DNA of 64,000 bases. Origin: Octopus vulgaris (Eukaryota). The DNA is taken from contig OX597838.1 of NCBI GenBank assembly GCA_951406725.2, positions 558,001-622,000 on the forward strand, written 5' to 3'. The translations under genes were made by a program, and so were the position numbers. Under the pieces are notes generated by a model. That model saw nothing but the letters and a program-made list of their open reading frames with translations, searched no databases and was not told the origin of the DNA. Positions 4,107 to 52,439 of the stretch are shown in pieces. The number at the start of each line of letters is the position of its first letter. The stretch's first letter is position 1.

Positions 4107-4378
4107 CTGAACGTCAGATTCGTCTTCTCCCATTGCGATCCAGATATAACGTATCGCTTCTTTCTCGCATTTCCCCACGTATCATCCGGTAAAGTATCTT
4201 TATTTCCACATCGAGGTTTTTCCATCCATTCTATTGTCCGATGGTCAAGACGTCCTGTGAGGGGTAAATTAGCAAAAGCCTGGAATCTACGGATTGCTTT
4301 CACCTGAGCCTCTTCGCTCATCAGATTTTCCATCTCTAAACTTGGGCCATTAACGTAGCCGAACTCCATCAAATATTT
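4107..4378 (-). CDS. MMP: Matrix metalloproteinase (M10A) pro-domain exon, furin-activatable type; internal coding exon
   Basis: Translates KYLMEFGYV...AIRRFQAFANLPLTGRLD...WMEKPRCGNKD...ARKKRYVISGSQWEKTNLTFR. This gives the YL..FGY motif, the peptidoglycan-binding-like FQ.F..L..TG.LD motif, the cysteine switch PRCG..D (4196-4216), furin site RKKR (4154-4165) and the start of the catalytic domain W.K..LTFR. Acceptor is ctctctttccttcgtttcag| (phase 0); donor is AG|gtgagt (phase 2). The MMP subtype cannot be fixed from this exon. Confidence 0.96.
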
Positions 4379-42635: not shown

Positions 42636-42849
42636 ATTTGGGTATACACACGCAGGCATGTATATAGTATTTCATTATGCCTGTGTATGGCTAAAATTAT
42701 AATAATCCAAACACACATACGAACATTATAGACACATATATTACATATAAATAGTAGACATCAGTGAAATCTGCATATATATAGATACACATAGCCATAT
42801 ATATATATGTGTGTGTGTGTGTGTCTGTATTTATTAAAAGCTGACTTAC

Positions 42850-43041
42850 CATTCCTTTTTTCTGTATATTCGTTCCAGCACTCCTTTGAGTTCGCGGCTG
42901 GGCCGAGTCCACTGGCTGGCAGAATAATTGTACAACGACCAGCAGCACGAAGAGAAGGTATTTCGTCCAGGAACCGAACCCGCTTCCATGGTAATTAAAA
43001 CTGGACGATTTCGAATTGGAAAGCCGGTTGAGTGTTAACAT
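42850..43041 (-). CDS. MMP: MMP first coding exon, minimal version (signal peptide plus start of pro-peptide, 64 aa)
   Basis: MLTLNRLSNSKSSSFNYHGSGFGSWTKYLLFVLLVVVQLFCQPVDS-AQPRTQRSAGTNIQKKGM has a basic residue, a hydrophobic core and a plausible VDS|A cleavage site. A consensus gtaagt donor in phase with the pro-domain exon follows. Confidence 0.8.
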
Positions 43042-43739
43042 CGGGTTAGATTTGGAACATTGAATCCGCGGCGGCACTGTTGTGTTGGCGACTGGAAACG
43101 ACGGAGATTTTGGTAAGTCTGACGGAGCTGTGCCTGTGGGGGATAACATTGCTTCTACTACAGGAGGTGGGGGTTGTGGTGATGAGGATGCTGATGATGA
43201 TGATGGTGGTGGTGGTGGTGGTGGTGGTAGGGGTGATAATTCTGATGGTGTTTCTGATGTTGTTATTGAAGGTGGTGATGATGATGATGCTGTTGTTGAT
43301 GATGAGGATGTTGATGATATTGATGATGAAGATGATGATGGAATCGGGGCAGATGATGAAGAAAGAGATGAAGGTAGCAGCAATGGCTTTATGTTGGTGT
43401 GGGACTTGTTGAGGGGCGACGAGTAAATAAGGGTGTATACACTAGAGGGAGACAGCTGGGTCCAACGCTGGCCGTGTGTAGTTGTCGACATGTTGATGGC
43501 TTCCCTTTCTGACAGTTTTGCCGAAGTCAAGAACTGTGGAGCGGCGGCTGAGCCGAAGCTGCTGCTGCTGCTGTTTGTAGTTGATGGAGGAGTCAGAGTA
43601 AGATGATGAAGGGAAGCAGCAGCGGCGGCGGCGTCAGTTGGCGGAGGTGGTGGTGGCGATGGTGATAGTAGTAGCAGGGAAGAACAGCTGTCAGTAGGGG
43701 AGGCCGTCGGAGGATAACCCTCGCTCACATCATCACCAC

Positions 43740-43772
<33 letters not shown>

Positions 43773-44228
43773 ATACTTCCACCTTATTGTTCTTCCTAAT
43801 GTTGTTGTTTTTGTTGCTCGTGCTGGTTGCCGCCGTCATCGACCGAGAGGTGGCGCTGTTGGTGAAATCAGCTTTACGGTCTTCTAACTCTTGCCTTCTC
43901 CTCATCGCTGCTACTTTCTCATCTCTAATCTTGTTATTGCTATTGTTGTTGCTGCTGTTGTTGTTATTGTTAATGGTGGTGGTGTTGTTGTTGTTATTGT
44001 AGCAGTCCAAGTCGAGACCGAAGAACATCACCATTTCGCTCGCTTCTTTCTCCATCCGAAACTCGCTTATTTCTACACAGTTTTTGCTGCTGTTCTTGTT
44101 GTTGTTGCTGTTGTTGTTGTTTCCTCGACAATCGCAGACTCTGTTATTATCGTCGATTTTACTTTTATCGCCGATCTCGTTTATCTTCTCGTCGTCAACG
44201 CGTTTTCTATCGCATCTTTTGATACTGC

Positions 44229-44260
<32 letters not shown>

Positions 44261-45713
44261 TTGTTGCTGCTGCTGCCGTTATTGATGTTGTTGCGGTTCC
44301 TTGTTTTTGTTTGTTTCGTTCTAGTAGCAGTAGCAGTAGTAGTAGTAGTAGCAGTAGTAGTAGTAGTAGTAGTAGTAGTAAGTTCAGTGGTGACTGTAGT
44401 GTTAGGTTCAGCTGTGAAATTAGTTGTTTGTGTTAAAGTGTTATTAAACCCATCCCTAGATGTGCCATCATCATCACCATCGTCATCATCGTCACCATCG
44501 CCGTCATCGTCACCATCGCCGTCATCGTCAGCGTCATCGTCAGCGTCATCGTCAGCGTGGTGGTCGTCATGTGCAGTGAAGAGGCTGTCGTCACAGTTGT
44601 TGGCAGGCAGCGCGGCTGCACCTCCATTGATGTTGTCTAAACAGGCTCGGTTACAATAGCAGCGAGGAGGAGGAGGAGGAGGAGGAGGAGTGGTGTGTTG
44701 CTGGAGTCGATCGGGTTGTTGTGGTTTCGCTTCCACTTGGCATCGGCAATCCAAAGTTGTTACCTTTCTCATTGAAGGCAAAGAAGGGGAGGAGGTAACG
44801 ACAGTGTTTCTGACGGTGGTGCCGCAGTGGCTACGAAGAACCAGAGGACGGATAACGCCAGATGGATTACCACTGGAGTTCAGTGCTCTTACTACGACTA
44901 CTACTACTACTATTACCATCGCCGCCGCCACCACCACCACCACTACTTCTGCCACCACAGTTGTTGTTGTTGCCAACACTACAGCTGACTTGAAAGCCAT
45001 TAACAACTGTTTTATATCCGACTCCTCTTCAGCAGTTTGTATCTTTTGTTTGTAGCCATTGTTGTTGTTGTTGTTGTTGTCGTCGAAGTAATAATAATAA
45101 TAGTAAAAGTAATGGTGGTGGTAGTCATAGCCTCGATCACTATAGAAGCGACCGTTAGTAGTAGTAGTAAGATAAGGTGGTGGTGGTGGAGCCAGTTTTT
45201 TGCTTTGGTGGGGAAAGGAGTAGTGAAAGGCTTTAATTACCAGCTTCACTGCAAGACTTCCTAATTCTGGTTGCCAGAGGCAGGAGGCTGAGGATGAAGA
45301 TCTTTGTAGAGAATATAATGGCAAAGATGGTTGTGCCAGGGGTGGCGCTGGTGTGGCTGCCGTCTCTGGCTGCCATCCTGAACACTGGGATCTTCTCAGT
45401 TTTGATGATGTCAGCATTTCTCTTCGAGTTTGGTCACTTTTAACTGGCAGCCATTTGTTCCTGTATTCTTCCCTGGAGATTCCACTTTGTGTAGTAAATT
45501 CTTCGACCATTCCCTTTCTTTGTCTATTCCATTTTAGTTCTGCCAGCACTTTTTTTGTCTCTTCTATCCCACCCTTTGTCTCATCTACCCGTTTAAACTT
45601 CACAAACAACACTTTTCCACTAAACAACTCACCACAACTTTCATCATCGCCTAACGTTTCCCTTTTCAACATTTTTCTCCGACAGCGCGCTTTTTCTGCT
45701 CTGCTGCTGCTGC

Positions 45714-45777
<64 letters not shown>

Positions 45778-46431
45778 TGCAGCTGTGGTCATGGTGGTGG
45801 TGGTGGTGACGATATTTCTATTAATATTATTGTCTGCTTTTATAAGTGTCAAAGAGTGAGTCGGTTTACCATCAGCGACGTCTCGGTCGCCTTTGCCGCT
45901 GTTCATGTGGCTTCTGTTGCAATAGCCATCAGATCGAGATAACGTATTCGAGCTCTCTTCATGCGTATCCCATATCTCGGAAGCAATGGTCAGAGCCGGA
46001 CCCATAATACCATTTACAATGACACCGCTATCTCTACTTACTATGATTCTGTCTTCAGAATCAAGCTTACCAATGTCCGATTCTTGCAGCATCTGGTCGT
46101 CAAAGAAGAGAACTCTATGATGACCTGAAAGATACAAATGTTTGTTGGTGATATGTAAGTGACAATGATCATGATGAAGAGGATGATAAAGACGAGGAGG
46201 ATGAAGAGGTAGATGATAATTATGATGATGGTGAAGACGATAAAAACGTGAATGCCAACTTTGTGGAGAATTAACTATTTTAATCTCATCATTTGGTCCG
46301 TTTTTACCAATCATTGTCCAGACATTGAACATTGCAGCTTTAGGTTCCATTGTTCCGTCAATTGCAGCGATCGGATCGATTAATCTTCCTGTTTTTGGTG
46401 CTATTTTCTTCGGCAAAGAAGCCAACTGAGG
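42850..46431 (-). CDS. Long open frame (1194 codons) contiguous with the MMP signal-peptide exon; low-complexity, probably disordered N-terminal extension (first ATG at 46350, context acaATGG)
   Basis: ORF track 42697..46425 has no stop. It contains poly-N/S/T/D/P/V/H/Y runs, all from trinucleotide repeats, and no dinucleotide repeats, unlike the flanks. No recognisable folded domain. Confidence 0.6.
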
Positions 46432-47709
46432 CTAAGGTGGAGACGACGATGGAGGCGTTGAGGTCGGGGAAGTCAACAAGGAAGTTGGCGGCGGCGGTGG
46501 TGGTGTTGTTGGTGGTGGCGGTGTTGGTGGAGGTGCTGTAGGCAACGGAGATAATGGAATTTCAGAGGCGAGTGAAGAAGGAGGCGGGTAGAGTGAAGAG
46601 GGAGAGATAGATGAAGGTGATCCCGGAGAAGAAGAAGCAGACGAAGAGAAAAACCCCGAAGAGGAAACATTGAAAGTTGGTAAGAGCATGCGTGACAGGA
46701 TATTGTTGGTTCTAAAGCGTTGATTTATTGCTTTTGGCGAAGATGGCGCTTTCTCTGATTGCTGGGTCGAGTTCAAAACAGGCACAACGAGTGGAGTATT
46801 GGAGCGAAGCGACGAAGTGACTTGTTGAAGTTGTTGTTTCTGCGGTTTTGGTGAGTCGTCGGTCGGTATAGGTGTTCCATCATCGCTTCGTAGAGTTGAA
46901 TTTGTGTTGGAGTCAGAAGCAATCACCTTCAAAGCATGAGTCAGTTGATAATCGAAAGAGCGTCGTTGATCAATTGATGAAGCGTGTGTGGCGTCAGGCA
47001 GAGCGGAGGAAGTTGTTGGCGGTGTCGGTTGGTGTCCGAGTGAAGGAGCATGTTCCGGGGGTTCGCCTTTAACTGCTGTGTCAGAAGATGGCAAGAATGC
47101 AGGAAAGCAAGAAGACATTGTCTGCGACGATGCCGAGCCGGTTGTTTCGAGTGACGGATGAGATGATGGAGATATCAACGAAGAAGACATTGATAAAGGC
47201 ATTGATGGCGGCGACGTGGTTGACGGAGTCGCAGGAGAATTCAACGAGAACGACGAAGGACATGGACTTGACCTTGATGTCAAAGTTGATGAGGTGAAAG
47301 GTGACGAAGTTTTCTTATCGATCGAGACTAGTTGCGATAGTGACGGAGGTTTCCGCTTGCTGAGGGGTAATGTTGGAGAAGGCGCGGCTAAAAGCGTTGC
47401 TGACTCCTGAATTGAGGCCCCGGTTGATGGACGGGACGCGGATTCCGCATCGCTATGAGCTGACCCCGAATCACCAGTCGGGTTTTCAAGGACACTTGAG
47501 GAAGATACTGAGTCACGCCCAGAATCAGAACCAGGTTCCTGCTTACCCAAATTCTTCACTTGCATTTCACACTTGGAATCCTGTTTAAACTCCTCTTCCG
47601 CTCTATAATCGACTTTCAGTGTTACAGTCACAGCCCCTTCATCGACCAATTCGCCGACGCTATTTTCGGTTGCCGTGGAAACCGTCCGATCTAGACAGGA
47701 GGACGCCAT
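46432..47709 (-). CDS. 425-aa Ser/Pro/Thr-rich ORF in the same frame as the downstream long ORF, separated from it only by one TAG
   Basis: Starts in strong context gaaaagATGGCG (A at -3, G at +4) and ends ...CCA CCT TAG CCT CAG TTG GCT. The codon phase continues into ORF 42697..46425. Confidence 0.6.
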   Translation of the reverse strand: MASSCLDRTVSTATENSVGELVDEGAVTVTLKVDYRAEEEFKQDSKCEMQVKNLGKQEPGSDSGRDSVSSSSVLENPTGDSGSAHSDAESASRPSTGASIQESATLLAAPSPTLPLSKRKPPSLSQLVSIDKKTSSPFTSSTLTSRSSPCPSSFSLNSPATPSTTSPPSMPLSMSSSLISPSSHPSLETTGSASSQTMSSCFPAFLPSSDTAVKGEPPEHAPSLGHQPTPPTTSSALPDATHASSIDQRRSFDYQLTHALKVIASDSNTNSTLRSDDGTPIPTDDSPKPQKQQLQQVTSSLRSNTPLVVPVLNSTQQSEKAPSSPKAINQRFRTNNILSRMLLPTFNVSSSGFFSSSASSSPGSPSSISPSSLYPPPSSLASEIPLSPLPTAPPPTPPPPTTPPPPPPTSLLTSPTSTPPSSSPP

Positions 47710-48178
47710 CTTTTCGAGCCGCTGGGTTTTGCTCAGATTGAACTACTGGAAGAGAATTATTCTGTTATCCTTTCGTACCCCTGCCCAAACCAAACTTCCC
47801 TATTTTCTTTATTCCACCCCTTTTTATCTCACAATGTCTTATTACAGTTTTTGTTGTTAGCGTTGTAGTTTTTATTTTTTTCTTCGGTTTTTCTGTCTGT
47901 CTTTTTTTTTTTATATATATTTTGTCGTTTCCCTAAATTTCAGGTTTTAGTCTTTCGATGACTGGTTGTGAGAATGGATGATGTGGTTGATAAGATCGCC
48001 AATCAAACGAGGTGCTCTACAGTCTTCCCCTCCTCCTCTTCGATCACCTCCAATAACTAACAGAAAATCACTTCTTCCCTCTTTGATGTTTAAAAGGATT
48101 TTTCTGGAAAGAAAAGAAAAAAAGAAAAAAAGTTAATAAAATTTCAAAACCGAAAAAAGGAAGTATGTGATTGTTTGC

Positions 48179-51190: not shown

Positions 51191-52439
51191 AAAGGGAGCC
51201 TCTCTCAACAACAAGACAAAACAATAATTGCGATGACTGCCTACATGGTAAACAAAACGATAAGTGTTTAAAAAAAAACCGTCAGTAGAATTGACGTCAA
51301 AGTTAGATAGTAGGAAGAGAAGGGTTAAAGGAATAATAAGTAGGGAACAAGTAGAGAGGGAGGGGTACGTTGATTTAAAGAATGTTTAAAGGCTTAGGAA
51401 AGAATTTCTCTATTGAAGTGGAGTGCACGTTAAGCTAATTGTTCAAACTATAATGACTATCGAAATCATTTATATGAGTAAAAAGTATGTTTCTGCCAGT
51501 GTTTACATTTGTTACAAGGGGATCCTTAGAGAAGAGAATATGGAAGAGTTCAGAGTTGCAAATGTTACAAATTCTCCTGCCCTTATCAAAAGGAAAGGAT
51601 ACAAACAGTATGAACCAATCTAACTTAAAATCTATATTATTGTCTTTAAGACGCCAAACTAATTTACTTAGCCCTGTACTATGTCGTTTTTTACTATCCC
51701 TAAATGATGAATAATGGTTTGAAATTCTCTCGGATAACTGGGAAGTGGACGCACCTATATGGAAGAAGACATCGGTACCGGAAGAAATTTTACACTGGGA
51801 AATATAATTCTTAATCTCGGTTGTCCTCCGAGATCGAAACGAAGTTTTATTGCTATGATTGTTGTTACTATTATTATTACCACCACCAACAACACTATTC
51901 CTATTAATATTAGTATTATTATTGGTAATACAACTAATAATACCATCAACAATAATACCGTTATTATTATTACTATTAACATTACCATTGTTATTAACAC
52001 GACTATTACTATTATTATTATTATCATTGTTATCACTATCACTACTACCATTACTATTATTATTGATACTATTCTTCTTATTATAATTGTATGAGGGGTT
52101 GGAATTAGCAAGATTAATGCTGGAACTCCCGAGTGAAGAACCTTTATTTAGCAGCTTGGTATTGTGAGAAGATATAATTTGTGAAAGATTCTAACTATGT
52201 GGGAATTGATAATAGAATAATATCTAGAATTTTGGGGAAAGTTCTTAGCAACAGCTTCACGGAACTGTAAGGGAAGGTTCGATTTAATTTGTTTTCCGAA
52301 AAGTATTACGAATCAGATACATTTCTTAGTGACTTTTGAATCATACGTAGTGTTATTTGTAAAAGTAAGGGAAAAATTTCTGGGTTGGAAATTTGGGGTT
52401 AAATGGCGCTTACCTCCCCTCTTGAGAGAGGCTCCCTTT

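Follow-up and report, generated by a model that had tools for sequence, protein, structure and literature searches.

A giant exon of a matrix metalloproteinase gene

The window is a stretch of 64,000 nt of Octopus vulgaris DNA (G000:C25:558001-622000), and the features collected in Table 1 lie on its minus strand. They belong to a matrix metalloproteinase (MMP) gene whose giant first coding exon holds two long open reading frames, ORF1 and ORF2, in one frame and parted by a single TAG. The main acceptor, the AG at 48104, has the strongest pyrimidine tract of 305 AGs, and the phase 0 donor at 42849 fits the phase 0 acceptor of the propeptide exon at 4378. Since that exon is followed by catalytic and hemopexin exons beyond the window start (C25:537,400-531,100), the preliminary description was correct in calling the product an MMP fusion. 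In the O. sinensis protein P0007 ('matrix metalloproteinase-2', XP_029650865.2) the domains PF01471, PF00413 and PF00045 score over the cut-off, and the cysteine switch, zinc-binding catalytic domain and hemopexin repeats of a Matrixin (M10A) were found, with their exons present in G000. The gene resembles M10A enzymes and P0007 in its PRCG propeptide, furin site, zinc motif, four hemopexin repeats and hydrophobic-looking C-terminal tail. Unlike known matrixins, it has more than 1,100 low-complexity codons in frame before a signal-like segment and 425 more beyond the stop. The tail, below the hydropathy threshold, may on a by-eye reading be a membrane tether; membrane-tethered analogues are Drosophila Mmp2 and the signal-anchored human MMP23.

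The spliced Logan protein P0008, in which a Met immediately precedes the start of the propeptide-exon sequence as the giant-exon join predicts, appears to support that join indirectly. At the other end of the exon, a contig of 775 nt from run X7 matches 47800-48102 and then runs on for 472 nt. At k=31, a genomic origin would be barred by the 48-nt TG repeat, and by its length (a fit of length, not letters) the extension would end in the CA repeat of the upstream exon. The long UAG-bearing mRNA presumably reaches the MMP exons as one molecule. In O. sinensis three models divide the locus: a 27-kb contig carries P0004 and P0009, and another contig carries P0007, which has no signal peptide. The locus appears to be mis-annotated there.

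Some further observations concern the surroundings of the gene. Matrixin gene clusters at G000:C25:9.63-9.75 Mb and C16:4.58-4.76 Mb have the catalytic half in one exon, unlike the intron-rich octopus MMP described here. At L009:9200-9270 (G000:C25 ~631,250, minus strand) a TATA-like box is followed by an initiator-like motif, with a GTGAGT donor ~870 nt downstream; this is a possible first exon of the MMP gene. Within the intron, at window 51435-52190 (minus strand), lies a 251-codon low-complexity ORF whose flanks look, by eye, like a GIY-YIG/Penelope-like retroelement.

Table 1 Features of the MMP locus. Positions are those of the window.
Feature	Position	Strand	Remarks
Giant first coding exon (5,254 nt) of MMP gene	42850..48103	-	acceptor 48104, donor GTAAGT 42849
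ORF1, 425 aa, Ser/Pro-rich, disordered	46435..47709	-	starts at first AUG of exon
Last 95 codons of ORF1, near-invariant between species	46435..46719	-	Pro-Pro before stop; ortholog comparison
TAG then C	46432..46434	-	stop position common to P0002, P0003, P0004, P0005 (from protein ends)
Open spacer of 27 codons, stop to next AUG	46351..46431	-	no AUG in any frame
First AUG past stop, in frame, strong context	46348..46350	-	start of O. sinensis model P0009
Alternative 3' splice acceptor skipping ORF1 and TAG	46125..46126	-	exon starts 46124
ORF2, 1194 codons to donor, low-complexity with Cys-rich islands	42850..46431	-
Val/Ala-rich hydrophobic stretch, ORF2 residues 476-516	44884..45006	-	possible membrane segment(s)
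Signal-peptide-like hydrophobic segment, then furin-like RTQR	42922..42978	-	signal/furin reading by eye
MMP propeptide exon (PG_binding_1, cysteine switch PRCG, RKKR)	4107..4378	-	phase 0 acceptor

Coding character and conservation of the two reading frames

The sequence bears out the preliminary description in its starting point, a single in-frame UAG between long ORFs of 425 and 1194 codons with C at +4 (TAG-C), which is a leaky context: the minus strand reads CCA CCT TAG CCT CAG TTG GCT across the stop. ORF1 begins at ATG 47709 in a strong context (A at -3, G at +4), has no Pfam domain, and its Atlas model has a pLDDT of 0.39. For ORF2, the 1194 codons are counted from 46431 to the splice donor after 42850; from stop to stop it measures 1244 codons, and it has a weak mucin-like match under the cut-off. 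The other two minus-strand frames contain 16 and 20 stops across ORF1 and 56 and 121 across ORF2, and 425 open codons were reached in none of 4000 Markov simulations. A three-base unit is found in every one of the 12 perfect microsatellites of the exon's coding part; over the 42.8 kb downstream the proportion is 31 of 154, and upstream it is 8 of 57. Given the stop-filled alternative frames and the triplet microsatellites, both ORFs look, and behave, like coding sequence.

The named protein nearest to ORF1 is that of Octopus sinensis, one residue apart. Orthologs are P0004 (O. sinensis), P0003 and P0005 (a single O. bimaculoides model in two versions) and P0002, a more distant Logan-assembled relative that is 89% identical with indels that keep the frame. 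The four proteins all end at one residue, so that the first stop is conserved in position, as is looked for in readthrough genes. Within the last 95 residues only one differs from O. bimaculoides P0005, and against P0002 the C-terminal block has 1 difference in 93 residues and a 2-residue indel. Of the alignment's 418 columns 61 vary, and they cluster, with a permutation p=5e-5 for the four longest stretches without variation. The block's 1/93 compares with 5/24 in 5'UTR pseudo-codons (Fisher p=0.0013, the region being chosen post hoc), and for the whole ORF1 the comparison with the UTR is not significant (p=0.15). Both O. bimaculoides versions are without the ORF1 start (window 47565-47709), the newer beginning at the second Met and the older having a different N-terminus, which is either an assembly gap or a lost start.

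The spacer downstream of the stop would stay open by chance with a probability of ~0.31, and if the two ORFs were independent, the common frame and open spacer together would have a chance of ~1/3 x 0.31 = 0.10. In fact 102 codons are open from the stop to the alternative acceptor, which is improbable by chance (~0.01), and something therefore probably translates them. Near the end of ORF2, residues 1152-1170 form the hydrophobic segment that, by eye, we take to be a signal with furin site, and the in-frame ATG at 43041 could be the start of an MMP of normal length. The Val/Ala-rich stretch of ORF2 falls within a predicted intron of the O. sinensis model; it is a G/U-rich, Val-coding island amid a C/A-rich exon and the best pairing partner of several C-rich ORF1 windows. 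RVLF (46108-46122) and KVLF (~45610-45630) in ordered-looking islands of ORF2 are motifs that we liken to the PP1-docking RVxF consensus.

No fused or long ORF2 relative was found among 4989 candidates of 656-2088 aa, and a search of representative proteins returned one true match (P0009) and one chance match. The JGI metagenomes yielded relatives in 0 of 352 and 0 of 597 candidate stretches, genome G000 has no paralog of an island of ORF1 or ORF2, and the ESM Atlas gave no usable match for either ORF.

Transcripts, splicing and editing at the stop

We compared assembled contigs of 8 of the 24 listed runs (6 putative RNA, 2 putative DNA) with the window; X19 and X20 (share 0.05) were left out of the comparison. 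Three of the eight cover the stop, namely X11 and X17 (putative DNA) and X2 (putative RNA), and their long contigs have 0 differences; X11 is possibly the source of the assembly. The remaining runs (X3, X5, X7, X12 and X13) are without cover at the stop; as a filter drops some contigs, they have no bearing on editing or splicing there. The TAG is present in putative DNA and RNA runs, and its position is kept in relatives. This rules out an assembly error or a private nonsense allele, the kind of alternative that had been listed; nothing was found in its favour, and it is scarcely credible unless the proteins of O. sinensis, O. bimaculoides and P0002, which all share the stop position, end there for an unrelated reason. 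On these comparisons we take the TAG, inside one long exon of the MMP mRNA, to be a fixed stop whose position octopus species have in common.

The preliminary description also considered that a small intron might remove the TAG. This is disfavoured: an X2 contig spans 46100-47850 with no gaps and no altered letter, there is no junction at 46432 in this run, and all 6 partly matching records were accounted for. A different splice form, which the preliminary description did not have, skips the stop altogether. The sequence of a loose end in X2, at 46129, has a single place in the genome, beside a GT donor, and the junction leads from an upstream non-coding exon (donor G000:C25:628735) into acceptor 46125, 308 nt past the stop. 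It was found in one of six putative RNA runs, the other five being without cover in the region. In this form the upstream exon has an in-frame stop and then no in-frame AUG before the junction, so that the first AUG is at 46092, leaving 1081 codons of ORF2. The unspliced form across the stop is a long X2 contig of depth 74, and the depth of the bypass junction is ~20 as back-calculated from bin depths, contig depth being a poor measure. The O. sinensis model P0009 uses the same acceptor and skips two further GT-AG segments. On a crude pyrimidine score among the 305 AGs, the AG of the TAG itself ranks 18 and the used 46125 site ranks 40. The other addition to the preliminary description is the signal-like segment with its own ATG at 43041 at the end of ORF2.

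A minor X7 contig (depth 5) joins upstream letters of unplaced origin to ~47828. Searched as a 30-mer, they had no match in G000, nor were they present in the flanks, and the first 15 match repeat-like places (C1, C3); the junction may be a third acceptor, an insertion allele or a chimera. We rejected two further splice readings. One is a NAGNAG acceptor at 47746/47743, through which ORF1 would become the final exon of a gene lying upstream; X2 does not use it, and P0002 is unspliced across it. The other is a 28-nt micro-exon in the upstream exon, where the length of the loose end follows from the k-mer branch. The upstream exon also contains, at L005:1496-1527 (minus strand), a TAG followed by CAA CTG in the frame that joins ORF2. 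We take this to be one base off the TMV-type CAR-YYA readthrough motif, and it is probably due to chance; the frame above it is short and without an AUG.

The HDV amber/W site is a known case of stop-loss editing by ADAR, and the preliminary description had proposed A-to-I editing of the UAG. Such editing is unsupported here. The T>C mismatch at 46433 is absent from the X2 contig, which represents the majority allele in one putative RNA run, and X2 has no variant bubble at the stop, the depth bin 46352-46420 being exactly the contig depth. The words of 45800-47700 are present at 0.95-1.00 in 16 putative RNA runs from 4 studies, and all 188 sampled unedited words in 9 of the 16, from three studies; words were sampled one in ten, and some very probably span the candidate A. 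Contigs hide minority alleles, and editing at a low level or in neural tissue may still occur. Majority A-to-I editing and a micro-intron are both absent in X2, the sole RNA run covering the stop.

The search for a complementary sequence, made among exonic partners, gave no significant duplex. A G-rich stretch 1.5 kb downstream (44951-44915) can pair at 16 of 17 positions immediately 5' of the UAG, and compared to dinucleotide shuffles the long-range duplex reached z -4.3 (0 of 40), with 2 of 21 other ORF1 windows equal or better. In each of two sets of controls, one synonymous and one of codon order, 8 of 60 sequences matched it, and it was rejected as a product of triplet-repeat composition. 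Inverted repeats of the exon are pairs of triplet repeats, and there are 207 of them; not one among the 25 longest extends across the stop. The weak 4-bp AGCC/GGCU hairpin of the preliminary description was seen in the MFE folds of 46500-46350 (z +1.1) and 46560-46300 (z +0.2). A 3' stimulatory RNA structure is present in a minority of known readthrough cases, and none was found here, windows starting at the stop having z +0.4 to +1.7 versus shuffles and Rfam giving no matches.

Readthrough and its rivals

The reading that we place first, with some reserve, is that the TAG is a leaky readthrough codon of the kelch/headcase type. Ribosomes would start at AUG 47709, and most would release the disordered ORF1 protein at the UAG, where termination after Pro-Pro at UAG-C may be slow. 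A fraction would decode the stop as an amino acid and translate on through ORF2 to the MMP, to give a product of ~2,140 aa (425+1+1194+523), with the internal signal-like segment near 42950 serving as a signal-anchor that exports the protease domain. The minor 46124 splice form would provide a second route, to an MMP of ~1,600 aa from AUG 46092. Translation across the stop, the product sizes and the topology are our inference. That this conserved codon, possibly regulated by tissue, gates an octopus polyprotein, yielding either ORF1 alone or the long precursor that exports a membrane-tethered MMP and leaves its huge disordered N-terminal part behind, is more doubtful.

Several results lead to readthrough. 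The stop is unchanged in the three covering runs and is the common end of the four related proteins, the UAG-bearing form is a long unspliced contig whose words recur in the 16 putative RNA runs, and the near-invariance of ORF1 extends to the stop itself. For leaky scanning to reach 46350, ribosomes would need to skip 14 AUGs, which is implausible, and reinitiation both declines with the length of an upstream ORF and has no TURBS core here to help it. The common frame, the open spacer and the 102 open codons are improbable by chance, as given above. According to PMC5100048, insect readthrough genes as a group have C at +4 and a conserved first stop, and the test for them is a coding signature that reaches from the stop as far as the nearest ATG in frame or the nearest acceptor. 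The same paper states that readthrough is lost more often at TAG, and that UAG is less typical than UGA. In Drosophila kelch the two ORFs have 689 and 782 aa (10.1101/2020.06.22.165522, PMC5100048). The octopus gene is like kelch and headcase in having two long in-frame ORFs split by one stop, a long second ORF, C at +4 and a conserved stop position. It differs from kelch, which has UGA, in its UAG and in that no 3' stem-loop was found, and from both in its catalytic domain after the stop and behind an internal signal-like segment, in its bypass splice form and in being from a mollusc. Against readthrough stand the UAG and the missing stem-loop. The AUG that comes next after the stop is in frame, has a strong context and is the start of the O. 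sinensis model, which also fits an unseen isoform or a dicistronic mRNA. With a bypass acceptor and a possible MMP start at 43041 the enzyme does not need readthrough, and the Val-rich stretch makes the fusion topology uncertain.

A close rival, ranked just behind readthrough, is that the TAG is an ordinary efficient stop, the long mRNA giving the 425-aa protein only and the MMP coming from isoforms that skip the stop. The stop may then have arisen in an ancestor of octopods and interrupted a frame that had been continuous, and the switch would be alternative splicing or promoter choice: through the acceptor at 46125, which was seen, and possibly through the AG of the TAG, a site at 46426 or internal promoters before ATG 46350 or 43041. 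The 46124 junction in X2, at an acceptor shared with P0009, argues for this, as do the second minor junction near 47828 in X7, the rank of the AG of the TAG above that of the used 46125 site, and an MMP with its own signal-like segment and ATG. The missing stimulatory structure agrees with it too, and a continuous ancestral frame split by a fixed stop would equally explain the common frame. However, the bypass junction comes from one of six putative RNA runs (five without cover), there is no junction at 46432 in X2, and the 46124 form alone leaves the 102 open codons unexplained unless the split is sufficiently recent. A stop 3.6 kb above an exon junction should also be an NMD target, yet the form is well assembled; this argument assumes that molluscs use junction-dependent NMD.

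Two other mechanisms seem improbable. ADAR might act on a minority of transcripts, or in neural tissue only, to convert the UAG to UIG (Trp) and so produce the fusion. PMC8382921 describes coleoid pipelines that join ORFs across UAG>UGG stop-loss edits and, citing Liscovitch-Brauer 2017, an association of conserved editing with slower nearby mutation, which could explain the invariant last 95 codons; its supplement has no match for MMP, stop or metalloprot. The octopus site is like HDV amber/W and the coleoid edits in placing a UAG between two joinable ORFs of a coleoid mRNA, and unlike amber/W in having neither an edited majority nor a significant duplex. The stretch pairing beside the UAG would favour editing, but in this duplex the A would sit in an internal loop facing G/U, and the pairing was matched by both sets of controls, and X2 and the unedited words of nine runs speak against it as well. 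Placed slightly lower than editing is a dicistronic mRNA, in which termination, or a Pro-Pro-stop stall, is followed by some reinitiation at AUG 46350, to give ORF1 and a separate MMP of 1167+523 aa. That AUG is the first past the stop, in frame and strong, and the O. sinensis model starts there; the two C-terminal prolines recall HCMV uORF2, where, according to PMC4605324, such prolines matter for termination stalling. Both HCMV gp48 uORF2 and the TURBS systems of calicivirus and influenza B BM2 (PMC3035654) have an upstream ORF before the main ORF, and the Pro-Pro before the octopus stop is a lead only. In contrast to these systems, there is no UGGGA core in the last 150 nt before the stop, stop and start are 81 nt apart, and the upstream ORF is in frame and 425 codons long; reinitiation falls with uORF length (PMC10275272), and the common frame is left unexplained.

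Whichever mechanism holds, the gene architecture is real, conserved and unusual, and an MMP with more than 1,100 low-complexity residues before its signal-like segment is unusual in itself. A title-level search including few subscription papers found no mollusc or cephalopod readthrough case and nothing on the octopus gene. According to 10.1101/2020.06.22.165522, abundant functional readthrough has been found in insects and a crustacean, and cephalopods are known for editing. If true, the polyprotein reading would mean that a cephalopod uses functional readthrough in the manner of insects to control an extracellular protease, and that alternative splicing adds a second switch in the same exon. 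The conserved stop above the catalytic domain is an easy reporter target for the question of whether coleoids also recode by readthrough.
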